Shown piece by piece: positions 1 to 23,942 of a stretch of 32,000 nucleotides of DNA (the first letter of the stretch is position 1; every line of letters starts with the position of its first letter). The notes beneath the pieces were generated by a model, which did not search any database, was not told where the DNA came from, and saw only the letters and a list, made by a program, of their open reading frames with translations. The stretch comes from Gemmata obscuriglobus (GTDB lineage: Bacteria; Planctomycetota; Planctomycetia; Gemmatales; Gemmataceae): assembly GCF_008065095.1 (NCBI RefSeq), contig NZ_CP042911.1, positions 5,220,001 through 5,252,000 on the forward strand, in the 5' to 3' direction. Position numbers and translations under genes: made by a program.

Positions 1-156
1 CGTGTCCCGAGGCACCGCCAGCCGCGCCCAACCGCACCTCGCGGCGACGAGCCGCGCCCACCCCGACCGGCACCACGCGGAGCCCGACGCGCCGGCGTCA
101 CCTTCGCGGATCACACGCCCACCGCCGCCGCACGCGCGATCGAGCGCCTCGGGGTT
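1..156 (-). repeat. ORF-less cassette family U, partial copy cut by the window edge
   Basis: Aligns by eye with the attC-distal part of units 2051-2385 and 7850-8185. Contains the hairpin motif CGCGGCGACGAGCCGCG at 40-56 and the conserved tail ...CACGCGCGATCGAGCGCCTCGGGGTT abutting the core at 157. Confidence 0.7.
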
Positions 157-247
157 GCCGAACAAACAGCTCACCTGCACCGCCATCACCGGATGAGCGA
201 TGCGCCTCAAATCAGATGGCGGTGTCAGGTGCAGCGCCGGGTTCGGC
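157..247 (-). repeat. attC-like structured inverted repeat (copy 1)
   Basis: GCCGAAC(157-163)-AAACA-GCT-CACCTG-CACCGCC / loop ATCACCGGATGAGCGATGCG... / GGCGGTG-T-CAGGTG-C-AGC-GCCGG-GTTCGGC(241-247). Read directly. Confidence 0.7.
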
Positions 248-254
248 CTTGAGC

Positions 255-410
255 CTAGTCCTTGCCAAGCACCAAGTCCACCACTCGAAAGCCCCGGACG
301 TGCGGACCGGAGCTGCGGCAGTGACCGAGCAACTGCTCGTCCTCGCACCCGACGTCTTGGAGCGCGTCGGCCAGGACCGGCATCGCGGAGAACTCCCGCG
401 ACACATCCAT
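255..410 (-). CDS. 51-aa ORF encoding a conserved C-terminal-type module (...LADALQDVGC...HCR..GPHVRGFRVVDLVLGKD); possibly the severed 3' part of the upstream cassette gene
   Basis: ATG 410-408, TAG 257-255. Translation is MDVSREFSAMPVLADALQDVGCEDEQLLGHCRSSGPHVRGFRVVDLVLGKD. I recognise this motif as recurrent in planctomycete/myxobacterial proteins but do not recall the family name. It is in the same frame as the upstream ORF tail (444-485), separated only by TGA 441-443. Confidence 0.45.
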   Translation of the reverse strand: MDVSREFSAMPVLADALQDVGCEDEQLLGHCRSSGPHVRGFRVVDLVLGKD

Positions 411-490
411 CTGACGGGCCAGCGCCAGAGCCGTGCCCGATCACCATCGCTCGGAGAAACTCACCGCCACCTTCTCAAGGAAGACTTCGA

Positions 491-1558
491 TAGGACTTAC
501 GTAGTTGACTTTTGGGTAAGTAGGTATGTAGGTGCGGCGAGGTAGGTTCGCACCGCTTCGCGCACGATGGCCGTCTTGGCCGCGAACCAACTGACGCCGG
601 ACTTGAGCCGGTGCCACTCGAGCCGCAGGAACGCGCGGATCGCGAGCCCGATGTGGACCGCTTGGGCCCGGCTCATGCGCACCTGGCACCGGTCCACGTG
701 GCAATGCTGCTTGAGGCCCCGGTGATACTCCTCGATGCCCCACGCGTGCCCGGCCAGAACCGCACGAGTGGCCTCGTCCATGTCGAGGTCGTTGGTGATC
801 CAATGCTCCGTGCCCCCATCACCGGTGGCGATCCGGAACGCCTTCACCAATCCGAACCCCTCCAGGTGCACCACCGTACCGGCGGCCCCGATCGGGCACC
901 CCTCGATGGCCCGATTGCCCGTGCGATCCGGGTTCACCCGCCGGTTGCTCCGCACCCGGGTCAGGAAGTGCCACCCCAGGGCCCGCACCGCCTTCAGGTT
1001 GTCCTTGCCCGAGTACCAGGTGTCGAACAGTACCACCCGGGGCGACAGGTCCCGTCCCTTGGCGACCGCCAGCATGGCTCGGAAGTGGTCGTTCTTGGTC
1101 TCGGCTCGGGCCGGGTCGGCGAGCCGGTAATCACACGGTACCAGGGCGGCCCCGTCGGTCCACAGCAGGGTCACCAGCCCGATCCCGCTCACCACCCGGC
1201 GGTGCCGCCCGGACCAGCACCGGCGCACCAGCCCCATGTGCCGGGCGAACGGCTTGTCCAGCACCGAGTCGTCGAGCACCACGGCACCGCCCGGGCGGAC
1301 CGACGACCGGGCTTCGTCCCACAACGCCGCTGGGTCCGGTTCCAGCCGGTGCAGCAGTCGGGTGAACGCATCATGCGCGGGCGCCGTCGGATGGTCCGGT
1401 TGGGCTCGCGCGGCTTCCGCGGCCGACGCCACCTTGGGGGTGGCGATCAGGAATTGGATGTAGTCCTCGGCGCTCGCACGTGGTGCGTTCATGGCCCGAT
1501 CATAGACCAACAACACACCATGCGCAAATCCTGCGCCAGCGCAACTGCGTAAGTCCTA
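491..1558 (-). mobile_element. IS701-like (IS4-superfamily) insertion sequence with 5-bp target duplication
   Basis: Terminal inverted repeats TAGGACTTACGTAGTTG (491-507) and CAACTGCGTAAGTCCTA (1542-1558) match 16/17. Direct repeat TTCGA lies at 486-490 and 1559-1563. A single transposase ORF fills the element. Confidence 0.85.
497..1516 (-). CDS. DDE transposase, IS701-like
   Basis: 339-aa ORF. Motifs ...VLFDTWYSGKDNLKAVRALGWHFLTRVRSNRRV... and ...WGIEEYHRGLKQHCHVDRCQVR... are typical of IS701/IS4-type DDE transposases. Family assignment is from memory. Confidence 0.8.
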   Translation of the reverse strand: MLLVYDRAMNAPRASAEDYIQFLIATPKVASAAEAARAQPDHPTAPAHDAFTRLLHRLEPDPAALWDEARSSVRPGGAVVLDDSVLDKPFARHMGLVRRCWSGRHRRVVSGIGLVTLLWTDGAALVPCDYRLADPARAETKNDHFRAMLAVAKGRDLSPRVVLFDTWYSGKDNLKAVRALGWHFLTRVRSNRRVNPDRTGNRAIEGCPIGAAGTVVHLEGFGLVKAFRIATGDGGTEHWITNDLDMDEATRAVLAGHAWGIEEYHRGLKQHCHVDRCQVRMSRAQAVHIGLAIRAFLRLEWHRLKSGVSWFAAKTAIVREAVRTYLAAPTYLLTQKSTT

Positions 1559-1939
1559 TTCGATCTCCGTGTCGCTGTTGTTGCCCACGAACTCCCCGAA
1601 CACCCCGCCCAGGAACGACCAGCCCCCACGGTCCATCAGCACTGCGAGTTTGTCGAACGGGATGCGGACCAGCCACTCCGGTTGCTGCCCCTGGGCTACG
1701 AAGTACTCACGGGCGACAGTCACCAAGTCGTCGATGCTCCGAACTCCGGGGTCGCAAGAGTCGGCGAGGTCGCCTTCGGGTAACTCCTGCTCCTGCCACC
1801 CCCACACACCGGAGTCGGAGGCGAATGCGTCGTGGAGGCCGTCAACCTCGTCGGACCACACTTCCGGCACGTCATGTTCGCGGTAGCTGAAGACGAACTT
1901 GGCTCGCCGGCCCGCAGTGCGGTTCTTACCGTCTCCCAT
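1556..1939 (-). CDS. Cassette ORF, hypothetical 127 aa, 3' end displaced by the IS insertion
   Basis: ATG 1939-1937 is preceded by GGAGGGG, about 20 nt after the attC-like core. The stop TAG (1558-1556) is supplied by the IS terminus. Removing the IS and one TSD copy restores ...DTEIEVFLEKVAVSFSERW* using 441-485. Confidence 0.7.
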   Translation of the reverse strand: MGDGKNRTAGRRAKFVFSYREHDVPEVWSDEVDGLHDAFASDSGVWGWQEQELPEGDLADSCDPGVRSIDDLVTVAREYFVAQGQQPEWLVRIPFDKLAVLMDRGGWSFLGGVFGEFVGNNSDTEIE

Positions 1940-1959
1940 CCGCTGCGTCCCCTCCGGTG

Positions 1960-2050
1960 GCCGAACGAACAGCTCACCTGCACCGCCATCACCGGATGAG
2001 CGGTGCGTCCCAAGTCAGCGGGCGGTGTCAGGTGCAGCGCCGGGTTCGGC
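1960..2050 (-). repeat. attC-like structured inverted repeat (copy 2)
   Basis: Cores GCCGAAC 1960-1966 and GTTCGGC 2044-2050. Consensus arms with bulged T and C on the right arm. Loop class ATCACCGGATGAGCGG. Confidence 0.7.
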
Positions 2051-2385
2051 TCGCTCACGTCCGCGCCGCGCATCCGCGGAAGCCCGCCCACCGGTGCGGG
2101 CGGGCGGAGCACCACCGACCCGATGCGCCGTGTCGCGGCCCACCGGAGGCCACCCACTGCCACCCGCGGCGATGAGCCGCGCCCGGCACCCCCGGGCACC
2201 ACGCGGAGCCACCACCGACCCGCACCGCCGTGTCCCCACGCGCCGCCAGCCACGACCAACCGCACCTCGCGGCGATGAGCCGCGCCCGTCGCACTCGGGC
2301 ACCACGCGGAGCCCGACCCGCGGCGTTTACTCACGCGGACCACACGCCCACCACCGCCGCACGCGCGATCATGCACGCGGTGGTT
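2051..2385 (-). repeat. ORF-less cassette family U, copy U1
   Basis: 335 bp between attC-like sites. Two ~100-bp sub-repeats each carry CGCGGCGATGAGCCGCG (2165-2181, 2268-2284). Essentially identical to 2900-3234. Confidence 0.75.
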
Positions 2386-2475
2386 GCCGAACAACAAGCT
2401 CACCTGCACCGCCAGGATGAAGTGCGCATGACAACGGTGGCCGATGGCGGTGTCAGGTGCAGCGCCGGGTTCGGC
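2386..2475 (-). repeat. attC-like structured inverted repeat (copy 3)
   Basis: Cores at 2386-2392 and 2469-2475. Same arms, with a different loop class (AGGATGAAGTGCGCATGACAACGG...). Confidence 0.7.
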
Positions 2476-2808
2476 TCGCTCACGTCCGCGCCGCGCATCC
2501 GCGGATGCCCGCGCCACCGATGCGGCCACGCGGAGCACCGCCGACCCGGAGCACCGTGTCGCCGCACGTCGGAGGCCACCCACCACCCCCACTCGCGGCG
2601 ACGAGCCGCGCCGACCACCGACCGGTGTTGGCGGAGCGCCACCGACCCGAACCGCCGTGTCCCCACCCGCCGCCCGCCACGCCCAACCGCACCTCGCGGC
2701 GACGAGCCGCGCCCGCGCCCACCGGCACTCTGCGGAGCCCGACGCGCGGGGTTCACCCACGCGGACCACACGCACACCGCCGCACGGGCGCTCCAGCACG
2801 CGAGGGTG
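2476..2808 (-). repeat. ORF-less cassette family U, copy U2 (diverged)
   Basis: 333 bp with the same block order as U1, carrying substitutions and indels. Contains the perfect palindrome GCATCCGCGGATGC and two CGCGGCGACGAGCCGCG hairpins. Confidence 0.75.
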
Positions 2809-2899
2809 GCCGAACGAACAGCTCACCTGCACCGCCATCACCGGATGAGCGGTGCGTCCCAAGCCCGATGGCGGTGTCAGGTGCAGCGCCGGGTTCGGC
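2809..2899 (-). repeat. attC-like structured inverted repeat (copy 4)
   Basis: Cores at 2809-2815 and 2893-2899. Consensus arms. Confidence 0.7.
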
Positions 2900-3234
2900 T
2901 CGCTCACGTCCGCGCCGCGCATCCGCGGAAGCCCGCCCACCGGTGCGGGCGGGCGGAGCACCACCGACCCGATGCGCCGTGTCGCGGCCCACCGGAGGCC
3001 ACCCACTGCCACCCGCGGCGATGAGCCGCGCCCGGCACCCCCGGGCACCACGCGGAGCCACCACCGACCCGCACCGCCGTGTCCCCACGCGCCGCCAGCC
3101 ACGACCAACCGCACCTCGCGGCGATGAGCCGCGCCCGTCGCACTCGGGCACCACGCGGAGCCCGACCCGCGGCGTTTACTCACGCGGACCACACGCCCAC
3201 CACCGCCGCACGCGCGATCATGCACGCGGTGGTT
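2900..3234 (-). repeat. ORF-less cassette family U, copy U3 (duplicate of U1)
   Basis: Reads the same as 2051-2385 by eye. The ORF-track translations through the two copies are identical. Confidence 0.75.
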
Positions 3235-3325
3235 GCCGAACGAACAGCTCACCTGCACCGCCATCACCGGATGAGCGGTGCGTCACAAGTCAGCGGGCGG
3301 TGTCAGGTGCAGCGCCGGGTTCGGC
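3235..3325 (-). repeat. attC-like structured inverted repeat (copy 5)
   Basis: Cores at 3235-3241 and 3319-3325. Consensus arms. Confidence 0.7.
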
Positions 3326-3659
3326 TCGCTCACATCCGCGCCGCGCATCCGCGGATGCCCGCCCACCGGTGCGACCGGGCGGAGCACCACCGAACCACGG
3401 CGCCGTGTCCCGACACATCGGGGGCCACCCACCACCGCCACACGCGGCGATGAGCCGCGCCCGCAACCGATCGGTCTCAGCGGAGCACCACCGACCCGCA
3501 CCACCGTGTCCCCATCCGCACCCGGCCACAACCACCGCAAGCTCGCGGCGACGAGCCGCGCCAGCCCCAACCGGCACCACGCGAAGCCCGACGCGCGCGG
3601 TTCACCACCGCGGACCACACGCACACCGCCGCACGCGCGCCCTCATGCACGCGATGGTT
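3326..3659 (-). repeat. ORF-less cassette family U, copy U4 (diverged)
   Basis: 334 bp with the same block order and two hairpin motifs (about 3443 and 3543). Confidence 0.75.
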
Positions 3660-3750
3660 GCCGAACATAAAGCTCACCTGCACCGCCATCACCGGATGAG
3701 CGGTGCGTTCCAAGTCAGCGGGCGGTGTCAGGTGCAGCGCCGGGTTCGGC
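3660..3750 (-). repeat. attC-like structured inverted repeat (copy 6)
   Basis: Cores at 3660-3666 and 3744-3750. Consensus arms. Confidence 0.7.
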
Positions 3751-4179
3751 GTACCGTGTCGATCGGGCGCCCAGCCAGAAGCAAGCGGCAGCCCCGACCA
3801 CGGCGTCCGCCGTCACCCCACCCACCAGCAGCCAGGCGAGTGGTTTTACTTGCCCTCCCCGGAACACCACTAGGAGAAGGAAGCAGAGCACGCCTGTGGC
3901 GACCAGACCGCTGAACAGGTAGCCGAACAGATTGGCCGGCGCCCTGTCGGGTCGCCTCCACCGGTACAGCGACCAGACCAACCCGGCCGTTGCTCCGATC
4001 ACCGCCCCGCAGGGGGGGCCAAAGAGATAGAGAACAAGCCCGAGGGCATTGAAGCCCTCCCCGGGCTTGGGAGGGAACATCCGGGGCTGGATCAATTCGA
4101 CGAAGGCAACTGCACCGAGAAAAACGAGCACCGCACCAGCAACAGCCGCAGCCAGGGTCCAGCCGATGACACGAAGCAC
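3715..4179 (-). CDS. Cassette ORF: small 4-TM membrane protein (~154 aa)
   Basis: Proposed GTG start at 4179-4177, 6 nt after AAGGTG (alternative GTG at 4188). Four hydrophobic spans: WTLAAAVAGAVLVFLGAVAFV, ALGLVLYLFGPPCGAVIGATAGLVW, LFGYLFSGLVATGVLCFLLLVVF, LAWLLVGGVTADAVVGAAACFWL. The 3' end runs into the attC-like site. Confidence 0.55.
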   Translation of the reverse strand: MLRVIGWTLAAAVAGAVLVFLGAVAFVELIQPRMFPPKPGEGFNALGLVLYLFGPPCGAVIGATAGLVWSLYRWRRPDRAPANLFGYLFSGLVATGVLCFLLLVVFRGGQVKPLAWLLVGGVTADAVVGAAACFWLGARSTRYAEPGAAPDTAR

Positions 4180-4242
4180 CGCGTTCACCTTGGGTTGTCG
4201 GCCCGTACTAGAGCGGAGTGCTTTTGCACGAGAGCCTCTGTG

Positions 4243-4333
4243 GCCGAACAAAGAGCTCACCTGCACCGCCACCATCGGATGAGCGGTGCGTCCCAAGTCA
4301 GCCGGCGGTGTCAGGTGCAGCGCCGGGTTCGGC
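4243..4333 (-). repeat. attC-like structured inverted repeat (copy 7)
   Basis: Cores at 4243-4249 and 4327-4333. Consensus arms. Confidence 0.7.
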
Positions 4334-4340
4334 TCTGTCC

Positions 4341-4718
4341 TCAGCGCGGTCGGCGCATGACGACGAGAGTGCGTCCTCCGCTCGCGGTGTCCAAGCTCAC
4401 GACCAGTTGAGCGTAGGCCGGGGCGCCCTGCAGCCGTACTTCTTCGATCACTGTGCCGTCGTCGTCCTGTGCCCGACAGATCATCGACCCACCTGGCCCG
4501 AGACATGAACCGCCGGCAAGGGATTTGCGGTATGGTCCCGGCAATCGGGGCGGGGCCACGACCTCCCACCCATCGTATCCGGCCACGACGGCTTCCAGGG
4601 AGACGAACGGTCGCTCCTGTCGTGTGGCCGATTCCGCGTGCCGGCCCCAGGGTGACAGCCAATAACCGGCACACCCCGCACCGAGTAACACGACGACCAC
4701 AAGCCACCGCACCCGCAT
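4341..4718 (-). CDS. Cassette ORF: putative lipoprotein (125 aa)
   Basis: ATG 4718-4716 follows GGAAGGGGGA. N-terminus MRVRWLVVVVLLGAGCAG is a signal peptide with a lipobox-like LLGAGC. Stop lies 8 nt before the attC-like site. Confidence 0.65.
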   Translation of the reverse strand: MRVRWLVVVVLLGAGCAGYWLSPWGRHAESATRQERPFVSLEAVVAGYDGWEVVAPPRLPGPYRKSLAGGSCLGPGGSMICRAQDDDGTVIEEVRLQGAPAYAQLVVSLDTASGGRTLVVMRRPR

Positions 4719-4735
4719 CCGATCCCCCTTCCGGT

Positions 4736-4848
4736 GCCGAACGATGAAGCTCACCGGCCCGGCCGCGACACCCGTGTGCGGCAGAGACGCGCGGGGAGCA
4801 ACGGGAAACAAACTACATGGCCGGGTCCGGTGCAGCGCCGGGTTCGGC
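4736..4848 (-). repeat. attC-like structured inverted repeat (copy 8, covarying stem, long loop)
   Basis: GCCGAAC(4736-4742)-GATGAA-GCT-CACCGG-CCCGGCC / 55-nt loop / GGCCGGG-T-CCGGTG-C-AGC-GCCGG-GTTCGGC(4842-4848). Stem bases changed on both arms; bulged T and C retained. Confidence 0.7.
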
Positions 4849-4871
4849 GTGCCTTTGCTCCAGGCGGGCGG

Positions 4872-5249
4872 CTACATGACGTGGATGTCCTTGAGCCGCA
4901 CCACCTGCCCGCCCTGCACGCGGACCAGCCAGAACGTCGCGGTCAGGTCGGAAGCCACCCCGTCGATGTTGAGGTCGTACCAAATCTCGCCCACCGCGTC
5001 GGACCCGTCGGCCGCTTCCCAGCGGTCCACCACCCTGCGCTGGGGAAGCCCACGCGACTCGCCCGCGACGGTAGCGCGTCCGCCAGAGCCCTCGATCGCC
5101 CACCGCACGCGGTTCGGTGCCCAGCGCCCCTCGTCAGGAGGGATCAACTCGTTCGCGGCCTCGTAGTCGCCTTGCTCCAGAAGTCCCACCCAGCGATCGA
5201 CCAGCGCCACCAACTCAGCGTCGGTGGCGGCCTCTGGTAGTGGCGACAT
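4872..5249 (-). CDS. Cassette ORF: hypothetical protein (125 aa)
   Basis: ATG 5249-5247 lies 18 nt after the core of the upstream attC-like site; TAG at 4874-4872. Acidic soluble protein ending ...DLTATFWLVRVQGGQVVRLKDIHVM. No family recognised. Confidence 0.65.
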   Translation of the reverse strand: MSPLPEAATDAELVALVDRWVGLLEQGDYEAANELIPPDEGRWAPNRVRWAIEGSGGRATVAGESRGLPQRRVVDRWEAADGSDAVGEIWYDLNIDGVASDLTATFWLVRVQGGQVVRLKDIHVM

Positions 5250-5266
5250 GGATCAGCGCCTCGGGT

Positions 5267-5356
5267 GCCGAATGTGGAGCTCACCTGCTCGCGCGCCCTG
5301 GAGGGGGCGATCCCCGAGTTCTGCATGCGCGAGTCTGGTGCAGCGGAGGGTTCGGC
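5267..5356 (-). repeat. attC-like structured inverted repeat (copy 9, covarying stem; extra third arm at 5395-5413)
   Basis: GCCGAAT(5267-5273)-GTGGA-GCT-CACCTG-CTCGCGC / loop / GCGCGAG-T-CTGGTG-C-AGC-GGAGG-GTTCGGC(5350-5356). In addition, 5395-5413 GGTGAGCTCCACATTCGGC is the perfect reverse complement of 5267-5285. Confidence 0.65.
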
Positions 5357-5552
5357 CCCGCGCCCCACCACGCCGAACATGGGCTGCCCGTGAAGGTGAG
5401 CTCCACATTCGGCCCCGCTCATGCAGCCCGGCAGATGAGCTACACCGATCCGCTCGCGCCTCGGGGGTGGGCGCGGGTCGGGCCAGCCACTTGGGATGGG
5501 GGGCTGGCTACCCTATCGACATCGCGCCCACCCCCGTGGGTCTCGGCGCGGG

Positions 5553-5642
5553 GCCGAACAGAAAGCTCACCTGCACCGCCAGGATGGAGTGAGCGACACA
5601 ACGGCGGCTGATGGCGGTGTCAGGTGCAGCGCCGGGTTCGGC
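5553..5642 (-). repeat. attC-like structured inverted repeat (copy 10)
   Basis: Cores at 5553-5559 and 5636-5642. Consensus arms. Loop class AGGATGGAGTGAGCG.... Confidence 0.7.
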
Positions 5643-6002
5643 TCGCTCGCCTCCGCGGTTCCGGGCGACACGCCGAGCTTGGCGCATCCGCGGAACCCGC
5701 GGCACCGGTGCGGCCGAGCGGAGCCCCACCGACTCGAATCGCCGTGTCGCGGCCCACCGGTGGCCACCCATCACCGCACCTCGCGGCGACGAGCCGCGCC
5801 CGCCCTGACGCGCGCCACGCGGAGCACCACCGACCCGAACCGCCGTGTCCCCACCCGCACCCCGGCCACGCCCAACCACACCTCGCGGCGACGAGCCGCG
5901 CCCGCCCCGACCGGCACCACGCGGAGCCACCACCGACGCGTGGGCGTCACCTTCGCGGACCACACGCCCACCACCGCACGCGCGATCCAGAACGCGAAGG
6001 TG
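5643..6002 (-). repeat. ORF-less cassette family U, copy U5
   Basis: 360 bp, same block order, two CGCGGCGACGAGCCGCG hairpins. Confidence 0.75.
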
Positions 6003-6093
6003 GCCGAACATAAAGCTCACCTGCACCGCCCCCTCCCAGGGAGCGATGCGTCACAAACTCGCGGGCGGTGTCAGGTGCAGCGCCGGGTTCGGC
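6003..6093 (-). repeat. attC-like structured inverted repeat (copy 11)
   Basis: Cores at 6003-6009 and 6087-6093. Loop class CCCTCCCAGGGAGCGATGCG. Identical to copy 14. Confidence 0.7.
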
Positions 6094-6446
6094 TCGCTCC
6101 GCACCGCGGTTCCTGGCCACGGGCCGAGCGTCGCGCATCCGCGGAGCCCGTGCCACCGGTGCGGGCGTGCGGAGCACCACCGACTCGACGCACCGTGTCG
6201 CGGCCCACCGGAGGCCACCCACCACCGCACCTCGCGGCGATGAGCCGCGCCAGGCACCCACGGGCACCACGCGGAGCACCACCGACTCGAACCGCCGTGT
6301 CCCCACGCGCCCCCGGCCACGCCCACCCGCACTTCGCGGCGACGAGCCGCGCCAACCACCGACCGGCACCACGCGGAGCCACCACCGTCTGATGCCCCGC
6401 GGACCACACGCCCACCGCCGCCCGCGCGCTCCAGAACGCCCGGGTG
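6094..6446 (-). repeat. ORF-less cassette family U, copy U6 (identical to U8)
   Basis: 353 bp. Reads identical to 7406-7758, and the ORF-track translations are identical. Confidence 0.75.
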
Positions 6447-6538
6447 GCCGAACAATCAAGCTCACCTGCACCGCCATCACACGATGAGCGGTGCGCCCCG
6501 AATCAGCGGGCGGTGTCAGGTGCAGCGCCGGGTTCGGC
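6447..6538 (-). repeat. attC-like structured inverted repeat (copy 12)
   Basis: Cores at 6447-6453 and 6532-6538. 6-nt unpaired spacer AATCAA on the left arm. Confidence 0.7.
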
Positions 6539-6955
6539 GTCTGTGAGCCACCGCACTGCGAAGTGGTCGTAGTGCAGGGCCGCGAACCGCTCGCGGAGTT
6601 GGGCCGCGAGCCACCAGAACTTGGCCCGGCGGTCGGCGGTCAGACCCGGGTCGGACCACACAGATAGCCGGCGGGAGCACCCGGCGACCACCTCCGGCGG
6701 GGCCGGTAGGTCAGGGCCGGCGGCCAGTTCTGCGCTGTCGGCCAACACCTCCGCTCCCTCCTCCAACCACGCCACCACGGCCCAGGAGGTGAACCGCACC
6801 CGGAAACCGGTTGGGCTACGGGCTTCGGGTGCTAACTCGGCCTGGACCGACCGCCGACCGCACTGTCGGCCATCGAAGTACGCGACAGCCGCAGCCAGAG
6901 AGAAGTCACTCGACGCCGGCAAGTGCGCCAACATCTTCAGACGACCGTCGCTCAT
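6503..6955 (-). CDS. Cassette ORF: hypothetical protein (150 aa)
   Basis: ATG 6955-6953 (MSDGRLKMLAHL...) lies 15 nt after the core, with AGAGGG upstream. The track's longer N-terminus (MMAVQVSFMFG) is a translation of the attC loop. The C-terminal tail ...AEPGAAPDTAR is encoded by the downstream attC-like site. Confidence 0.6.
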   Translation of the reverse strand: MSDGRLKMLAHLPASSDFSLAAAVAYFDGRQCGRRSVQAELAPEARSPTGFRVRFTSWAVVAWLEEGAEVLADSAELAAGPDLPAPPEVVAGCSRRLSVWSDPGLTADRRAKFWWLAAQLRERFAALHYDHFAVRWLTDAEPGAAPDTAR

Positions 6956-6970
6956 CCGCGGCCCTCTGGT

Positions 6971-7061
6971 GCCGAACATAAAGCTCACCTGCACCGCCAT
7001 CATCGGATGAGCGGTGCGTCACAAACGAGCGGGCGGTGTCAGGTGCAGCGCCGGGTTCGGC
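6971..7061 (-). repeat. attC-like structured inverted repeat (copy 13)
   Basis: Cores at 6971-6977 and 7055-7061. Consensus arms. Confidence 0.7.
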
Positions 7062-7314
7062 TCGCATGACTCCGCGGTTCGGGGGCGCACGCCGAGCGTC
7101 GCGGCTCCGCGGAGCCCGGGCCACCGGTGCGGCCGAGCGGAGCACCACCGACCCGCATCACCGTGCTGCCGCACACCGGAGGACACGACCAACCGCACCT
7201 CGCGGCGATGAGCCGCGCCGGCCACCCACCGGCACCACGCGGAGCCCGACACCGGAGTTCGCCCACGCGGACCACACGCCTACCGCCGCACGCGCCCTCA
7301 TGCACGCGAGGGTT
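7062..7314 (-). repeat. ORF-less cassette family U, short copy U7 (one sub-repeat)
   Basis: 253 bp with only one CGCGGCGATGAGCCGCG hairpin (about 7200). Head and tail blocks are as in the other copies. Confidence 0.7.
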
Positions 7315-7405
7315 GCCGAACATAAAGCTCACCTGCACCGCCCCCTCCCAGGGAGCGATGCGTCACAAACTCGCGGGCGGTGTCAGGTGCAGCGCCGGGT
7401 TCGGC
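7315..7405 (-). repeat. attC-like structured inverted repeat (copy 14)
   Basis: Cores at 7315-7321 and 7399-7405. Identical to copy 11. Confidence 0.7.
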
Positions 7406-7758
7406 TCGCTCCGCACCGCGGTTCCTGGCCACGGGCCGAGCGTCGCGCATCCGCGGAGCCCGTGCCACCGGTGCGGGCGTGCGGAGCACCACCGACTCGA
7501 CGCACCGTGTCGCGGCCCACCGGAGGCCACCCACCACCGCACCTCGCGGCGATGAGCCGCGCCAGGCACCCACGGGCACCACGCGGAGCACCACCGACTC
7601 GAACCGCCGTGTCCCCACGCGCCCCCGGCCACGCCCACCCGCACTTCGCGGCGACGAGCCGCGCCAACCACCGACCGGCACCACGCGGAGCCACCACCGT
7701 CTGATGCCCCGCGGACCACACGCCCACCGCCGCCCGCGCGCTCCAGAACGCCCGGGTG
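7406..7758 (-). repeat. ORF-less cassette family U, copy U8 (identical to U6)
   Basis: See 6094-6446. Confidence 0.75.
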
Positions 7759-7849
7759 GCCGAACAAATAGCTCACCTGCACCGCCATCACCGGATGAGC
7801 GATGCGTCACAACTCAGATGGCGGTGTCAGGTGCAGCGCCGGGTTCGGC
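7759..7849 (-). repeat. attC-like structured inverted repeat (copy 15)
   Basis: Cores at 7759-7765 and 7843-7849. Consensus arms. Confidence 0.7.
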
Positions 7850-8185
7850 TTCGTCGCTGGCAGTTGCGGTTCCGCGAAGCCCGCGCTCGTACCGCGCATC
7901 CGCGGAGCCACCACCGACACCCACCACCGTGTCGCGGCCCACCGAGGGCCACCCACCACCGCACCTCGCGGCGATGAGCCGCGCCGACCACCGGCGGGCG
8001 CCACGCGGAGCGCCACCGACCCGAACCGCCGTGTCCCCATGCGCACCCGGCCACGCCCAACCACACCTCGCGGCGGCGAGCCGCGCCAGACCCGATCGGC
8101 ACCACGCGGAGCCCGACCCGCGGGCGTCACCCACGCGGACCACACGCCCACAACCGCCGCACGCGCGATCGAGCGCCTCGGGGTT
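7850..8185 (-). repeat. ORF-less cassette family U, copy U9
   Basis: 336 bp with two hairpin motifs; the second is the variant CGCGGCGGCGAGCCGCG. The tail is the same as in the partial copy at 1-156. Confidence 0.75.
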
Positions 8186-8277
8186 GCCGAACCAGGAGCT
8201 GAGCTGCAAGCCGCCCCTCTCAGGGCGGTCTCCCCTTGCTCCCGCGACGGCTTGTCAGCTCCAGCGGGGGGTTCGGC
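8186..8277 (-). repeat. attC-like structured inverted repeat (copy 16, covarying stem; extra third arm at 8315-8338)
   Basis: GCCGAAC(8186-8192)-CAGGA-GCT-GAGCTG-CAAGCCG / loop / CGGCTTG-T-CAGCTC-C-AGC-GGGGG-GTTCGGC(8271-8277). In addition, 8315-8338 is the perfect reverse complement of 8186-8209. Confidence 0.65.
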
Positions 8278-8511
8278 CGACGGCCGCCTCCTTCCGCCAG
8301 AGGGTGAGTGAGCGTTGCAGCTCAGCTCCTGGTTCGGCCGCCGCCGGATCCGCTCAGCCCACCGGGGACATCGCACGGCGGGAGATCACCATGCGACCTC
8401 AGGCCGCTCGGATCGGCGGGCCCTCGCCGGTCGCCTTCACCAGGGGGGAGGTGGCGACAACCTTACGACCGCCCGCCGATCCGCGGCGCGTACAACCACC
8501 TCACGGCGGCG

Positions 8512-8602
8512 GCCGAACGAACAGCTCACCTGCACCGCCATCATCGGATGAGCGATGCGTCCCGGAACAGATGGCGGTGTCAGGTGCAGCGCCGGGTTCG
8601 GC
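8512..8602 (-). repeat. attC-like structured inverted repeat (copy 17)
   Basis: Cores at 8512-8518 and 8596-8602. Consensus arms. Confidence 0.7.
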
Positions 8603-9065
8603 CTCGGGTGCGACACGAGCCAGCCAAGGGCGGCTCGTCTGAGTCGGCAACGAGGCCGGGGGAAGGCGGCTCGCCCTCGGCCAACGCTACTATGCCCTCG
8701 GCCTCCTCCTGCTCGGCGTCACTCATGCCGTCGAGGATGCTCCGCACGTTGTCGCCGTACATCCTCGCGGCCAACAGCGGAGCCAACTCGCGAAAGTCCG
8801 GCCCGTCGGTGCCAAAGTTCAAGAAGTGCTCGAACAGCACCTCCGACCCACGCTTGTCCTCGACTTCCCGCTTGTGCGGGCCGATACCGATCCAGTTGAC
8901 TTGCCCGTCGATGCCGTTGGACACGGCCTCCGAGCCGATGCCGCCGACGCCGACGACCGCATCGTACTCGCGGTCGCGGACGATGCCCATGCAGTCATGC
9001 ACACCGAAGCAACCGCTCGCGTCGGGGTCGCCGTTGTGCGTTCGCTTGTAAACTAGCACTCGCAT
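8580..9065 (-). CDS. Cassette ORF: hypothetical protein (161 aa)
   Basis: ATG 9065-9063 lies 6 nt after GAGGAG and 22 nt after the attC-like core. MRVLVYKRTHNGDPDASGCFGVHDCMGIVRDREYDAVVGVGGIG... looks like a globular conserved protein, but I do not recognise the family. The 3' end reads into the attC-like site. Confidence 0.7.
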   Translation of the reverse strand: MRVLVYKRTHNGDPDASGCFGVHDCMGIVRDREYDAVVGVGGIGSEAVSNGIDGQVNWIGIGPHKREVEDKRGSEVLFEHFLNFGTDGPDFRELAPLLAARMYGDNVRSILDGMSDAEQEEAEGIVALAEGEPPSPGLVADSDEPPLAGSCRTRGRTRRCT

Positions 9066-9087
9066 GACGGCTCCTCGACCTTCTGGT

Positions 9088-9178
9088 GCCGAACATAAAG
9101 CTCACCTGCACCGCCATCATCGGATCAGCGATGCGTTCCGAATCAGCCGGCGGTGTCAGGTGCAGCGCCGGGTTCGGC
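9088..9178 (-). repeat. attC-like structured inverted repeat (copy 18)
   Basis: Cores at 9088-9094 and 9172-9178. Consensus arms. Confidence 0.7.
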
Positions 9179-9183
9179 GTGCC

Positions 9184-9588
9184 TTATTGGGCGTCGCGGG
9201 CCTCCTGCCGCAGCTCCGCCAGATACACCTCGAAGCTGCCGTACCGCTCCTCGACCTCGTGGGCCTCGTGTTGGTAGAACCCGACACCCCACATGGCACC
9301 ACCGCGGTCCACGAACCAGTAGTCCCCAGCCCCGTTGGTGCCGACGACGAGGTAGCTCGCTGGCCACGGCTCCTCGTCCTCACCAACGGTCATCCAGGCC
9401 GCCCGCTGCCGCGCCGCCAAATTCTCTCGGATGATGGCATCCGCGTCGGTCCACAGCACAGCGCGTTGCGGGAGGGTCGCCTTGATCCGGCGAACTTCGT
9501 CAGCGTGGCGGCGGAGGAAGTCGCGGTACTCGCCGGGCAGCGGATGGCCGAGCGCCGACTCGATCCGGGCAACCTCGGCTTCGCCCAT
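9184..9588 (-). CDS. Cassette ORF: SMI1/KNR4 (SUKH-1) family protein, immunity-protein-like (134 aa)
   Basis: MGEAEVARIESALGHPLPGEYRDFLRRH... plus ...YLVVGTNGAGDYWFVDRGG...GFYQHE match the SMI1/KNR4 pattern (N-terminal 'LP.eY..FL', central 'G.GdY' block). ATG 9588 lies 17 nt after core 9606-9612, with GGAGGG upstream. Confidence 0.75.
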   Translation of the reverse strand: MGEAEVARIESALGHPLPGEYRDFLRRHADEVRRIKATLPQRAVLWTDADAIIRENLAARQRAAWMTVGEDEEPWPASYLVVGTNGAGDYWFVDRGGAMWGVGFYQHEAHEVEERYGSFEVYLAELRQEARDAQ

Positions 9589-9605
9589 CCGAGAGCCCTC
9601 CGGGT

Positions 9606-9830
9606 GCCGAACCAGTGTTTAGTGTGCGAGGCTTCGCGCAATAACACGGGATGATTTCACCCGGCGCACCACGCGCCGGGAACCGAACTACTTGCCGGAA
9701 CTGTCGTTACCGTGTGAAGGGCGTCTTCACAATATGCGCAACAACACGGTAATGGGCCGTGCGAAACTTCGACTCACACCTTCACGGCTCGCACAATAAC
9801 ACGGTAACGGTCCGTGCGAACGTGAACGTT
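9606..9830 (-). promoter_or_regulatory. Array boundary: lone core half-site (GCCGAAC 9606-9612) followed by a repeat-rich non-coding region; candidate attI-like / regulatory region
   Basis: The core is present, but no arm sequences and no partner GTTCGGC follow. Three direct copies of GCRCAAYAACACGG lie at 9636-9649, 9736-9749 and 9791-9804; the last two extend to ~32 nt (...ACACGGTAAYGGKCCGTGCGAA). An inverted partial copy GTTACCGTGT lies at 9706-9715, and a hairpin CCGGCGC-ACCAC-GCGCCGG at 9661-9679. Confidence 0.4.
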
Positions 9831-10210: not shown

Positions 10211-11482
10211 TCAGCTCTTTTCATCGTCCTTGTCTTCCACTGACCGGATGAACTCCAGCGCGCCACGCCGCACGCCCCCGACGGCACGCCAGTAGCCCAC
10301 TACCACGATTAGCCAGCCCATCAGGATCGCCGCCTGCTCGTAGAGCAGCCAATCGGCGTCCGGCTTCTTCGGGCGCCCGTGAATTACGTACTGCTCCCAC
10401 CCGACGATTACGAGAACCGGAATGAGGGCGAAAAGGAACCCGAGCCACCCGACCTGCCGGGCCACCTTCGGCCGCTTGAGCGCGAGCCCGCTGGCGGTCA
10501 GCGCGGTGAGGAACCAGAACTCCGCCAGCGGGGCGGACACGAGCAGCGCCAGCCGCGCGTACTTCACCTCCTCCGGGAACGGCACCTTCTCGCACACGAT
10601 CCAAACCGGCACGGACACGAAGGCGACCAGGGTCAGGAGACCGCTCAGCGCGAACATTCCGCCGGCGCCGCTGTTCCGCGGGGCGCCGCCGCTGAACAGC
10701 CGCCCGATCACCATCAGGAACCCGGCCAGCGCGCCGAGCAGCCCGTAGGTGGCGAGGTTGATTTCGTCGGACTTCGAGAGCGGGATCGAGTTCGGCCCGC
10801 CCGAGTTGATGTAGCCTTCGATCTGGACCCACCCCTCGCCCTTGGGCAGTTCGCCGACGGAGCGAGTGTAAACCGCTTTGCCGAACTCGACGAACCCGAG
10901 CAGCGCGACGAACAGCAGCGAGAACCGGACCCAGAAGAGCCCGCGGCGCACGGACGCCCACTTCTTCGCGAGCACCTGTTCGGGGTTCTTCTCCGCCGCC
11001 TTCTTCTTGGGCTCGGGCGCGGCCGGCTTGGGGCGCGGCTTGCTCCCGCGGTCACCTCGCTTGGGCGCGGGCGGCGGTGCGTCCGGGTCCGGTTCGAGTT
11101 CGGGCGGCGGGGCCGACGGGAACGGCCGCGACGCGGCGGTCGGCACCGGGCCGGTGGCGGCGGGTTGGTTCGGCAGCGCACCCCAATCGGCCGCGGCGGC
11201 CGGCGACTCGGGCAGTTTGGCCCGCACCGGCGCGACGGGCGGGCGCGACGGGGCCGGGCGCGGCTGCGACGGCGGCAGCAGGTCCGACTCGAACGCGGGC
11301 CGCGACGGGGCCGGGGGCGGCGGCGGCGGCTCGACCGGGACCGTCGGCGCGGCCCCGCCCTCTTCGGGCACCGGCACCGGCACCGCGGTCTGGCAGTACG
11401 GGCACTTCACCCGCTTACCCGCGGACTCGTCGCGGGCGCGGAACCGCTTCCCGCACGACGGGCACCCCAGTGTGATCGGCAT
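10211..11482 (-). CDS. Zinc-ribbon / Pro-rich linker / multi-TM membrane protein (423 aa)
   Basis: N-terminus MPITLGCPSCGKRFRARDESAGKRVKCPYCQ has CxxC...CxxC. A long P/A-rich linker is followed by several hydrophobic spans in the C-terminal half. Confidence 0.8.
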   Translation of the reverse strand: MPITLGCPSCGKRFRARDESAGKRVKCPYCQTAVPVPVPEEGGAAPTVPVEPPPPPPAPSRPAFESDLLPPSQPRPAPSRPPVAPVRAKLPESPAAAADWGALPNQPAATGPVPTAASRPFPSAPPPELEPDPDAPPPAPKRGDRGSKPRPKPAAPEPKKKAAEKNPEQVLAKKWASVRRGLFWVRFSLLFVALLGFVEFGKAVYTRSVGELPKGEGWVQIEGYINSGGPNSIPLSKSDEINLATYGLLGALAGFLMVIGRLFSGGAPRNSGAGGMFALSGLLTLVAFVSVPVWIVCEKVPFPEEVKYARLALLVSAPLAEFWFLTALTASGLALKRPKVARQVGWLGFLFALIPVLVIVGWEQYVIHGRPKKPDADWLLYEQAAILMGWLIVVVGYWRAVGGVRRGALEFIRSVEDKDDEKS

Positions 11483-22445: not shown

Positions 22446-23942
22446 TCACCGCGGGGACATTTGCGGAGTCGGCTGTGGCGTCGGCGCCAAGCGAGAATTC
22501 ACCGACCGCACCGCCCACACCAACACGACGAGCAGCAACAGGGTCATAACTCCGGCCCCCACCCACACGGGCGCGAGCCCATTGCGCGAGGGGCGGGCGC
22601 GAGCGCGGTTCGAACGTGACGCGGGTGCTTGGCGCCGCTTTCCCCGGCGCGGCTTGGTAGTCAGTTCGGCCAGATCGACCGGCCGAGGGGTGATATCGGA
22701 TGAAGTCGCCGCCGGCACTCCAGCAGGCGGGTTTTCCGGAAGGTCGAGCAACACGTGCTTCGTCGCGGAACTCGGCGCCAAACCCATTGAGGACGGGAGA
22801 GCAGTGCTCCGCGACGGCAGGGTGTCGCCGGACGCCGCCGGATTCTGCGGGGCGGGACGCACCGTCACCACCGGCACCGCGGCCGACCCGTCGGGATACC
22901 GCGCGTACGATTCCAGAATCGCGGCGACTTCCGCTGCCGTCTGAAACCGGTCGTCGGGGCGCTTTGCCATCAGCCGGGCGACGATCTCGGCCACCGGAGC
23001 GGGCACCCCGGGCCGCAGCGCCTGAAGCGGGGCCGGCCGTTCGAGTTGGTGCTGCAACAACTTCTCGATCGCGTTCCCGGTGGGAAATGGGGGACGGCCG
23101 GTGAGGAGGAAGTAGAGCGTGCAACCCAGGCTGTAAAGGTCCGCGCGTGCGTCCACCAGCTTCGAGTTTTTCGCTTGCTCGGGGGCCATGTAGTCCGGCG
23201 TCCCCACGACGGTATGGTCCCGCGTCAGGTCCGGGGCGACCATGTCCTCGGGATCGACCGCCCGGGCGAGTCCCAGGTCCAGAATTTTGACGACCGCAGG
23301 TTCGGTCGCCTGAGGCAAATGCCGCTCACCCGCAACCACAATGTTGGACGGCTTGATGTCGCGGTGGACTAGGCCATGGTCGTGCGCGTGTTGCAACCCG
23401 AGTGCCGCCTGCCGAACGTATTCGCACGCTTCCACGACCTCAAGCTTCTGGAAGTCACGCATCATCCGGGCCAGGTCGATGCCGTCGACAAACTCCATCG
23501 CCAGGAAGAACTTGCCGTCCGCCTCGCCCGCGTCATCGACGCTCACGATGTTCGGGTGGTGCAACTTGCCAGTCGCCTGCACCTCGCGCGCGTACCGGCC
23601 GCGCACGGTCGGGTTCACGATGAGTGACGGCCGGATCACCTTGAGGGCCACCGTCCGATCGGTGCGACCGTGCCGCGCGCGGAACACTTTGCCCATTCCG
23701 CCCTCACCGAGCTTGTCGAGCACGACGTAAGAGCCAACGATGAGGTCCGCGGACTTCCCACGAATGATCTTGCCGAGTTGGTAGTGGGTGACGCGCTCGT
23801 GCTTGAGTATGTGCCTCATCCCGCCCTGGAGGTCGGTTCCGAAGGCGTTCAGGTCGCGGACGATCGCCCCGATCTGCTCGGGGGTGAACAGCCCGCTCCC
23901 CTGGAGGGTACGTACCAAGTCGTCGGCGGTTTCAAGTGGCAT
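22446..23942 (-). CDS. Ser/Thr protein kinase with C-terminal membrane anchor (498 aa)
   Basis: GEGGMGKVF...ALK, HRDIKPSN, DLGLAR, GTPDYMAPE. A Pro-rich linker is followed by the TM segment GAGVMTLLLLVVLVWAV. Confidence 0.9.
   Translation of the reverse strand: MPLETADDLVRTLQGSGLFTPEQIGAIVRDLNAFGTDLQGGMRHILKHERVTHYQLGKIIRGKSADLIVGSYVVLDKLGEGGMGKVFRARHGRTDRTVALKVIRPSLIVNPTVRGRYAREVQATGKLHHPNIVSVDDAGEADGKFFLAMEFVDGIDLARMMRDFQKLEVVEACEYVRQAALGLQHAHDHGLVHRDIKPSNIVVAGERHLPQATEPAVVKILDLGLARAVDPEDMVAPDLTRDHTVVGTPDYMAPEQAKNSKLVDARADLYSLGCTLYFLLTGRPPFPTGNAIEKLLQHQLERPAPLQALRPGVPAPVAEIVARLMAKRPDDRFQTAAEVAAILESYARYPDGSAAVPVVTVRPAPQNPAASGDTLPSRSTALPSSMGLAPSSATKHVLLDLPENPPAGVPAATSSDITPRPVDLAELTTKPRRGKRRQAPASRSNRARARPSRNGLAPVWVGAGVMTLLLLVVLVWAVRSVNSRLAPTPQPTPQMSPR

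Follow-up and report, generated by a model that had tools for sequence, protein, structure and literature searches.

The first 9.2 kb of a 32,000-nucleotide stretch of Gemmata obscuriglobus DNA (contig NZ_CP042911.1, positions 5,220,001 to 5,252,000; hereafter the window, whose positions are counted from its first letter) hold 19 integron-type cassettes delimited by attC sites, and ten of these cassettes belong to one family that carries no gene. This family, the repeated unit from which it is built and the mini-hairpin found in each unit are the subject of the present analysis.

The attC array spans positions 1-9178, with its cassettes on the - strand, and runs from right to left in window coordinates. 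Reading of positions 1-9000 combined with a pattern search gave 18 attC-like sites of 90-113 nt. The cassettes that bear an open reading frame (ORF) all have it on the - strand (e.g., 1939..1556, 5249..4872, 9065..8580 and 9588..9184). The 5' core of the sites is GCCGAAC in 17 cases out of 18 (GCCGAAT once) and the 3' core is GTTCGGC in all 18; these two cores, perfectly complementary to each other, each match the R'' (RYYYAAC) and R' (GTTRRRY) consensus at six of seven positions. Folded as DNA, the sites adopt the canonical shape, i.e., a 7-bp stem, a 5x5 internal loop, a long stem and a variable apex (z = -2.0 to -3.9), with two single-base bulges in the 3' arm of the + strand. As the bulged bases lie on the + strand, this strand is the attC bottom (recombinogenic) strand, a side that agrees with the presence of the ORFs on the - strand.

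Cassettes, repeated units and mini-hairpin

The ten units, all on the - strand and recognized by alignment, share a mean column identity of 76%; an earlier note on this DNA, made from the letters only, had grouped them as one family with the same limits. The leftmost is partial (1-156, the 5' part in cassette orientation), its full 335-bp copy running past the window start (L132 18910-19244), and it is bordered by the attC site 157-247, found by pattern search and fold, whose bottom strand is the window + strand. Four two-unit cassettes then lie in tandem: 2051-2385 (335 bp; attC at 1960-2050, pattern search and fold), 2476-2808 (333 bp; attC at 2386-2475, with a different apical sequence), 2900-3234 (335 bp; attC at 2809-2899) and 3326-3659 (334 bp; attC at 3235-3325, which folds with an R''/R' stem of 7 bp, an internal loop of 5x5 and an L stem bearing two single-base bulges in the 3' arm of the + strand, with z = -3.8). 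The attC site 3660-3750, upstream of the last one in cassette orientation, closes this tandem, to which Tandem Repeats Finder (TRF) assigns a period of 426 bp and 4.2 copies at 1956-3750, as the four-unit tandem of the note implied. Further on come 5643-6002 (360 bp, two units, a long 3' tail variant with …GAACCGCGGAG…; attC at 5553-5642), 6094-6446 (353 bp, two units; attC at 6003-6093, and another site upstream at 6447-6538), 7062-7314 (253 bp, the single-unit variant; attC at 6971-7061), 7406-7758 (353 bp, two units; attC at 7315-7405) and 7850-8185 (336 bp, two units, a short tail variant; attC at 7759-7849). The nearest relative of this last cassette is a copy from Gemmata algarum (88.6% identity). 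All these attC sites are on the - strand and, where nothing else is said, come from the pattern search. Cassette 2051-2385 is a perfect copy of 2900-3234, as 6094-6446 is of 7406-7758. The family units are bona fide attC-bounded cassettes.

A divergent attC, detected by pattern search and fold at 8186-8277 (-), lies upstream of cassette 7850-8185 and is part of a composite site, 8186-8338. A second composite site occupies 5267-5413. In both, the left arm has its usual imperfect partner (ending at 5356 and 8277, respectively) and a second, perfectly complementary partner about 60 nt further (5392-5413 and 8315-8338). Pseudo-cassettes of 139-173 bp, probably of this composite-attC kind, recur in the three array samples described below (L134, L136 and L137).

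Read in cassette orientation, each family cassette begins with a head of about 70 nt containing GGCGTGTGGTCCGCG. The head palindrome reported in the note is indeed present, as GCATCCGCGGATGC at 2495-2508, where it is perfect, and as near variants elsewhere. The head is followed by units of about 102 nt, in which GCTCCGCGTGGTGCC and a short variable stretch precede the hairpin block GGCGCGGC-TCRYC-GCCGCGAG, and a semi-variable stretch then leads to GGGACACGG and TCGGGTCGGTGGT. A tail of 55-85 nt, of which there are three variants, centres on the palindromes CACCGGTG and TCCGCGGA and precedes the cassette's own attC; the tail block CGCGGACCACACGCC was also recovered. TRF gives internal periods of 101-103 bp with about 2.1 copies per cassette, at 2104-2313 (~103 bp, 2.1 copies), 2530-2738 (~101 bp, 2.1), 2953-3162 (~103 bp, 2.1), 5718-5937 (~102 bp, 2.2), 6169-6387 (~102 bp, 2.1), 7481-7699 (~102 bp, 2.1) and 7901-8113 (~102 bp, 2.1), all on the - strand. 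The internal repeats are thus as announced, except that their number ranges from one to three and not from one to two; cassette size follows it, with 252-256 bp for one unit, 332-361 bp for two and 438-459 bp for three. Contigs of an independent draft assembly of 2008 agree with the complete genome across the repeats (100% over 10,485 bp and 99.95% over 3,651 bp), which indicates that the repeat structure is not an assembly artefact.

The most constant element of the unit is a mini-hairpin, CGCGGCGRYGAGCCGCG, which occurs 18 times in the window (the note counted about 19), always on the + strand, for 0.05 occurrences expected. Written on the C-rich strand, which is the predicted folding strand, it reads CGCGGC-GACGA-GCCGCG at 40-56 (pattern count and fold prediction). 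The other copies were located by pattern count, with the loop GACGA at 2594-2610, 2695-2711, 3544-3560, 5782-5798, 5884-5900, 6335-6351 and 7647-7663, the loop GATGA at 2165-2181, 2268-2284, 3014-3030, 3117-3133, 3443-3459, 6233-6249, 7201-7217, 7545-7561 and 7967-7983, and the loop GGCGA at 8069-8085 (all +). Its orientation relative to attC is uniform, in 18 cases out of 18 in the window and 72 out of 72 in the three array samples. Among 107 hairpins from three genomes, 101 have a perfect 6-bp stem and 106 a loop of the form G-R-Y-G-A on the C-rich strand (GACGA 41, GATGA 35, GGTGA 17, GGCGA 13). This loop would presumably fit a GNRA-like pentaloop, a resemblance to be taken as a lead, not as a test.

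Partition-function folds of whole cassettes predict the stem with a mean probability of 0.55 (RNA parameters) or 0.56 (DNA parameters) on the C-rich strand, and of 0.06 (RNA) or 0.21 (DNA) on the G-rich sense strand, where it is low because alternative G-U and G-C pairings compete. The rare stem variants comprise one compensatory change of C-G to T-A and three C>T changes on one side of the stem, after which a G-T wobble persists on the C-rich strand alone, with no case of the converse; such small numbers are only suggestive, but they favour the C-rich strand.

The hairpin has some likeness to the attC sites of sedentary chromosomal integrons (Vibrio cholerae repeat, VCR, type), which are strand-specific and fold on the single-stranded bottom strand. 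Locally, the attC apical loop CACCG-GATGAG-CGGTG and the family hairpin GCGGC-GATGA-GCCGC have GATGAGC in common, on the same strand. However, the family hairpin has a 6-bp stem and no R or L boxes, unpaired central spacer or extrahelical bases, so that it is not an attC site. GATGAGC is found 23 times in the window for 3.4 expected, ten times in attC apical loops (e.g., 192-198, 1995-2001 and 3270-3276) and nine times in family hairpin loops. An origin of the unit from an attC site was considered and rejected, no extended similarity being found between unit and attC (P = 0.53).

It should be stressed that the family cassettes are non-coding, as the note maintained. Distances between conserved anchors vary by 1-7 nt among copies (60-67 from the head to the first hairpin, 100-105 from hairpin to hairpin) and fall in all three classes modulo 3. 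Real ORFs of the same array have a GC content of 0.81-0.91 at third codon positions (GC3) and 0.41-0.58 at second ones (GC2), with a period-3 power of 4-27 times background, whereas the GC content of the family cassettes is flat over the three codon positions and their period-3 power ratio is 0.9-2.1. No frame of the family cassettes has a Pfam match. It is because of these frame-breaking indels between conserved blocks, the lack of period-3 or GC3 bias and the lack of Pfam match that the family is considered non-coding.

A small or repeat protein, or the decayed remnant of one, could nevertheless be advocated on the basis of the long stop-free frames of both strands, of the 102-nt period, which equals 34 codons, and of the several hypothetical proteins that the Prokaryotic Genome Annotation Pipeline (PGAP) calls over the cassettes. 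Yet the called ORFs traverse attC sites: those at 1720-3267 (-; 515 aa) and 2457-3914 (+; 485 aa) cross several cassettes together with their attC sites. In addition, the translated frame found only seven matches among 5.8 billion proteins, each annotated as a hypothetical protein of G. obscuriglobus. Frames of more than 70 aa arise mechanically in DNA as GC-rich as this family, so that a plain length threshold, as applied to Vibrio, would fail here. The long ORFs and the shorter ones that PGAP lists as hypothetical proteins (e.g., C1280_14915, _14925 and _14945) are annotation artefacts of GC-rich repeats, and the coding explanation, which hardly retains any credit, is effectively refuted already.

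Abundance and distribution of the family

A cassette protein of the window is encoded at about 2.79 Mb on the G. obscuriglobus sequence CP025958.1, where the array continues past the window start. Three 20-kb array stretches of CP025958, from two chromosomal loci and totalling 61 kb, served as samples. The adjoining array (L134) has 34 attC sites and 13 family members among 33 cassettes; L137 (2.83-2.85 Mb) has 40 attC sites and 12 family members among 39 cassettes; and L136 (6.65-6.67 Mb) has 42 attC sites and 13 among 41. The last two were reached through "hypothetical proteins" that PGAP had placed on family copies. Very large attC arrays are present at no fewer than two loci of G. obscuriglobus. 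Of the 113 cassettes sampled, 38 (34%) belong to the family, with 32 distinct sequences; the proposal that it fills more than half of the array holds for the window (10/19) but not for the 61 kb. Its members are neither clustered nor regularly spaced along the arrays (runs tests, P = 0.10-0.75). Many other cassettes of the arrays encode SMI1_KNR4/SUKH, Imm1-like or ankyrin proteins, i.e., an immunity-protein-like cargo.

Recent duplicates are also present: they are 99.6-100% identical over about 400-620 bp, and their homology is confined to one cassette and its attC, except for one that spans two cassettes (1,150 bp). They occupy non-adjacent positions, within arrays and between arrays 3.8 Mb apart, and concern coding cassettes too. 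Single-cassette segments with 99.6-100% identity are found, for example, at 18482-18941 of L134, 4312-4770 and 10330-10788 of L136 and 5137-5594 of L137, and L134 2328-2855 has a near-identical counterpart at L136 8489-9016, 3.8 Mb away. Such near-identical segments of one cassette in distant arrays point to recent transfer or duplication at the scale of the cassette. The family thus appears to multiply as a cassette, presumably by excision and insertion of the IntI type, for which the near-identical copies are indirect evidence.

Outside G. obscuriglobus, a pattern scan of a genome collection disclosed, among the matches listed, relatives in Gemmata algarum JC673 (on ten contigs, of which many represent one collapsed cassette) and in a Gemmata metagenome-assembled genome (MAG). 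These copies are always flanked by attC sites of the same type and keep the same orientation, as the note had proposed to verify in other genomes; the other matches listed are mostly due to chance in GC-rich genomes. The best match of each copy in another species is 81-89% identical. A more specific pattern gave chance matches only in Joint Genome Institute (JGI) metagenome contigs, and a pattern search of viral contigs gave none. Beyond the family and the attC sites, the G. obscuriglobus array has almost nothing in common with the array contigs of G. algarum and the MAG. In these searches, and among the matches listed for the genome scan, the family was found only in Gemmata, which does not prove its absence elsewhere.

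A tyrosine recombinase or integrase was sought without success in the ORFs of the 32-kb window and in the genes called over the 10 kb upstream, the far end of the array being more than 58 kb away, beyond the sampled DNA. Within this DNA, the locus looks like a cluster of attC sites lacking an integrase (CALIN). The array is flanked by lipopolysaccharide-core genes (LpxK, HldE-like, Glyco_transf_9 and Kdo kinase) at about 14.3-20.2 kb, and about 13-18 kb upstream of it lie a Ser/Thr protein kinase (23942..22446, -) and transposase-like ORFs (24353-25711 and 26153-27556, +), DUF6444-containing and DDE_Tnp_1. An ORF bordering the array, 11482..10211, encodes a 423-aa membrane protein whose Pro/Ala-rich N-terminal half contains a 57-bp tandem duplication (11227-11340, 72% identity). 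Inside the array, an insertion sequence (IS) occupies 487-1563 within cassette 248-1959, just downstream of the cassette ORF 1939..1556. It encodes a DDE_5/DDE_Tnp_1 transposase (1516..497, -) and has the inverted-repeat ends TCGATAGGACTTACG (487-501) and CGTAAGTCCTATTCGA (1548-1563).

Conservation, strand asymmetry and possible functions

Copies of G. obscuriglobus share a mean identity of 0.82 with one another and those of G. algarum 0.79, the latter being also the value across the two species. For many copies, the closest relative belongs to the other species, which indicates that the lineages of the family are old and were not homogenized within each genome. Conservation is very uneven along the unit, where 40% of the columns are conserved at 95% or more and 24% at less than 70%, and the position-specific differences between unit 1 and unit 2 recur across species. 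This blockwise heterogeneity suggests a constraint on specific blocks, a pattern that recent spread alone would not produce. The internal module is therefore probably under purifying selection, as far as heterogeneity of conservation, and not a calibrated neutral rate, can tell.

The strand asymmetry pointed out in the note is real. The family has a GC content of 75-79%, a GC skew on the cassette strand of +0.15 to +0.26 (nine of the ten units falling between +0.21 and +0.26) and an AT skew of about -0.35; the GC skew of coding cassettes is 0.05-0.15. The skew amounts to 0.18 in conserved columns versus 0.05 in variable ones, and the substitution spectrum is symmetric, G>A being about as frequent as C>T. 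A strand-biased mutation process is rejected on both counts, and the skew is part of the constrained sequence rather than a mutational by-product. Taken with the hairpin, this suggests a strand-specific module. The C-rich strand is at the same time the window + strand, the attC bottom strand and the sequence that any antisense RNA would have. It is less structured than its GC content predicts (-0.247 versus -0.279 kcal/mol per nt), although the idea of an unusually unstructured bottom strand was not retained, the effect being modest (0.03 kcal/mol per nt below the GC-based expectation).

The note had put forward a structured or G-rich RNA among its candidates, and had suggested looking for a known RNA family and for covariation. 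With Rfam 15, the whole window gave no match at the gathering thresholds, and positions 1-9300 gave at E<=1 a single weak and unrelated match, outside the family. Compared with dinucleotide shuffles, the minimum free energy (MFE) of the full cassette has a z of +0.13 on the sense strand and +0.07 on the other one. RNAalifold, applied to both strands, yields covariation terms of -0.52 and +1.21 kcal/mol for 12 copies and of -0.76 and -1.04 kcal/mol for 33 distinct ones, which gives no supporting signal, and the consensus folds, hairpins excepted, are not reproducible between runs. The invariant stems of the hairpins are themselves uninformative for covariation, with one compensatory variant in 107. 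A globally structured RNA was rejected on these grounds. Two local candidates were left as unsupported: a second hairpin in unit 2 (GTGGCC...GGCCGC), which has some compensatory variants that are inconsistent across copies, and a long-range closing helix (GUCCGCG with CGCGGAU), which is possible but invariant. Canonical G-quadruplex motifs, (G3+N1-7)x4, occur in 6 of 30 copies, below shuffled controls, which disposes of the G-quadruplex candidate as well. A consensus scan of positions 1-9700 found no sigma70-like -35/-10 pair, although such scans do not predict activity according to the literature, and no intrinsic terminator was found within the family.

The best explanation overall, to which we give slightly better than even chances, is that of a gene-less attC cassette family with a selected, strand-specific module that contains a cis-acting hairpin. 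As for the mechanism, the most likely one, advanced tentatively and with somewhat less than even chances, is that the hairpin of the C-rich strand is a cis-acting recognition element. The functional core would be the mini-hairpin, displayed on a C-rich strand that is otherwise poor in G and in self-pairing. This strand is the attC bottom strand, which has to become single-stranded and fold in integron recombination, and it also has the sequence of any antisense RNA; a putative sequence-specific factor would read the hairpin on it, when the strand is either single-stranded or transcribed. The module would make no product but would act in cis on the cassette or on the array, i.e., on recombination, on retention or on transcription across it. 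The beneficiary could be either the cassette's own propagation, the module being then a selfish helper, or the host array.

Several points weigh against this explanation. The hairpin-binding factor and the exposure or transcription of the C-rich strand are both putative, and this is its weak side. Cassette-internal hairpins are not known to play a role in attC recombination. The assignment of the hairpin to one strand comes from a thermodynamic prediction and four rare stem variants. At 77% GC, chance alone is expected to produce any one of the 6-bp-stem hairpins or 8-bp palindromes, only their invariance being informative. The case for purifying selection is uncalibrated by the neutral divergence between Gemmata species, and the copies are paralogues, so that counts of them are not independent. 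Lastly, the 32-kb window has no integrase gene, and current mobility is deduced from the near-identical copies only.

The explanation that comes next is that the family is neutral or hitch-hiking junk, short non-coding cassettes without selected internal function accumulating at little cost through copy-and-reinsertion by the integrase, replication slippage or unequal crossing-over between near-identical attC sites. Single-cassette duplications do affect coding and non-coding cassettes alike, unit number varies from one to three as slippage predicts, and the random scatter of the family along the arrays is also as expected. Furthermore, short cassettes can excise more often, and small ones between similar attC sites can be lost or gained by slippage (PMC5371416), while "selfish elements" is one of the two options proposed for Vibrio (PMC1382264). 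This explanation is however disfavoured by the blockwise invariance of the sequence, the hairpin being nearly invariant in 107 copies from three genomes while whole copies have diverged to 70-88% identity with no homogenization within genomes, and by the confinement of the skew to conserved columns; we regard it as unlikely, while leaving it a real chance. Promoters, or other double-stranded transcription signals, firing in the sense direction, as most gene-less cassettes tested in Vibrio and Treponema do, and switching on downstream cassettes far from the cassette promoter Pc in arrays of more than 100 cassettes, would account for the dispersal of the family through very long arrays, always in sense orientation and with no integrase or Pc adjoining the array. 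Most of the 29 gene-less Vibrio cassettes have a sense promoter activity that is unpredictable in silico (PMC11014356), and ORF-less cassettes of oral metagenomes are reported to do likewise (PMC6557892). Nevertheless, besides the lack of a sigma70-like pair in 1-9700, the family has 77% GC, more than its neighbour cassettes, and almost no TA steps, contrary to the Vibrio cassettes, which are AT-rich; tandem runs that reach five family cassettes, and one to three repeated units in each, do not correspond to what a promoter requires, and a double-stranded signal leaves the strand skew unexplained. Such a role is accordingly improbable.

The skew would find its place if the cassette were a directional transcription insulator, in which Rho terminates the C-rich antisense RNA while the G-rich sense RNA escapes without polarity, the unit of about 102 nt having approximately the size of a Rho loading (rut) site broken by a small hairpin; in a variant of this scheme, the G-rich non-template strand would be prone to R-loops. 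The antisense strand, with about 47% C and 30% G, the skew of conserved columns, the reduced structure of the C-rich strand (-0.247 versus -0.279 kcal/mol per nt expected) and the fixed orientation all suit it. The unit also presumably resembles the rutA-boxB-rutB arrangement of phage lambda tR1, which is a lead, not a test. However, rut sites are compositional and would not need invariant blocks of 15-28 nt, antisense transcription is only presumed here, and bicyclomycin had no effect on the Vibrio gene-less cassettes tested (PMC11014356), which leaves the insulator a very slim chance. On the other strand, a sense non-coding RNA, either trans-acting like the small RNA (sRNA) sRNA-Xcc1 or structured and G-rich, has a reported precedent among integron cassettes (PMC3256417, as cited in PMC8876359), and the conserved sequence folds on the sense strand at a low free energy (-208.8 kcal/mol, this strand being rich in G+U). 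Against it stand the lack of any Rfam family even at E<=1, the fold z of +0.13, covariation terms between -0.5 and -0.8 kcal/mol for 12 and 33 sequences, consensus structures that change from one run to another, as well as the hairpin probability of 0.06 on this strand, the lack of G-quadruplex enrichment and the lack of a promoter or terminator in the scans; it is very unlikely. Another class of repeats, such as a miniature inverted-repeat transposable element (MITE) or decayed IS, repetitive extragenic palindromes or bacterial interspersed mosaic elements (REP/BIME), an array of the CRISPR (clustered regularly interspaced short palindromic repeats) type or the antitoxin RNA repeats found in type III toxin-antitoxin systems, is superficially similar by its hairpin-bearing tandem repeats. 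It can scarcely be upheld, since neither terminal inverted repeats nor similarity to a transposase were found, the stretches between hairpins are conserved and not spacer-like, no toxin or cas gene lies inside the cassette, and attC sites form the exact limits of every copy in the three genomes; a MITE or IS in particular was rejected for want of terminal inverted repeats.

Place among gene-less cassettes and significance

Families of this kind are known in Vibrio superintegrons, whose paralogous non-coding cassettes include one family that reaches 45 copies in one V. vulnificus strain and 34 in another (Boucher et al. 2006, PMC1382264). They represent up to 49% of the array, and their homologues, more than 80% identical over the full length, are confined to the genus; purifying selection was inferred in that study, which suggested selfish elements or, alternatively, a role as promoter or RNA (PMC1382264). 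The novelty implied by the earlier note was thus overstated, paralogous and genus-restricted non-coding cassettes having been described since 2006. The Gemmata family shares all these descriptive traits, being attC-bounded and ORF-less, with many paralogues per array and with homologues found, in the searches made here, in the genus only. It is unlike them in its planctomycete host, with a genome of 67% GC, and in being more GC-rich than its neighbours, whereas the Vibrio cassettes are AT-rich. Its G+T / C+A strand asymmetry, its one to three tandem units of about 102 nt, its near-invariant mini-hairpin and the lack of an adjoining integrase in the window also set it apart.

In the same way, sense promoter activity was found in most of the gene-less cassettes tested by Blanco et al. 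(2024, PMC11014356) and linked to their AT-richness, and ORF-less cassettes with promoter activity are also reported by Tansirichaiya et al. (2019, PMC6557892). These promoter-active cassettes are, like the Gemmata family, interspersed in long arrays, and their tested function is cis-regulatory; they differ from it by the 77% GC of the family, in which no sigma70-like promoter was found, and by its internal repeats and skew, which are undescribed there. The trans-acting sRNA-Xcc1 of Xanthomonas, produced from an integron cassette (Chen et al. 2011, PMC3256417, as cited in PMC8876359), provides the example of a non-coding cassette with an RNA product, whereas the Gemmata family has no Rfam match at E<=1, hence none to such an sRNA if Rfam includes one, and no signal of stability or covariation. 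A literature search found no paper describing Gemmata integron arrays or this cassette family. The Gemmata family is a new, unusually GC-rich example within the known class of paralogous gene-less integron cassettes.

The function of gene-less cassettes is unsettled in integron biology, where selfish DNA, promoters and RNAs are all considered. The existing experimental answers come from AT-rich cassettes of Vibrio and Treponema, in which promoter-like activity may follow from base composition. The Gemmata family offers a contrasting test case, as it is very GC-rich, forms about one third of the sampled cassettes and has a strand bias and a conserved core made of the hairpin and three blocks. 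Such a sharply defined core makes mutational and binding experiments easy to design, in arrays whose repeats automatic annotation turns into "hypothetical proteins". If positive, they would indicate that gene-less cassettes can act in cis by something other than AT-driven promoter activity.

A more specific version of the cis-acting explanation, which has a distinctly small chance of being right, is that the unit of about 102 nt is a previously unrecognized accessory signal of cassette arrays, acting when single-stranded on the attC bottom strand or as antisense RNA. The mini-hairpin with its G-R-Y-G-A pentaloop, set in a G-poor and unstructured sequence, would be read by a dedicated, putative factor. 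It may control excision or re-insertion, the way in which the excised single strand is converted, or transcription of one particular strand along giant arrays. Were this true, a third of all cassettes in the Gemmata arrays would count as "infrastructure" and not as cargo.

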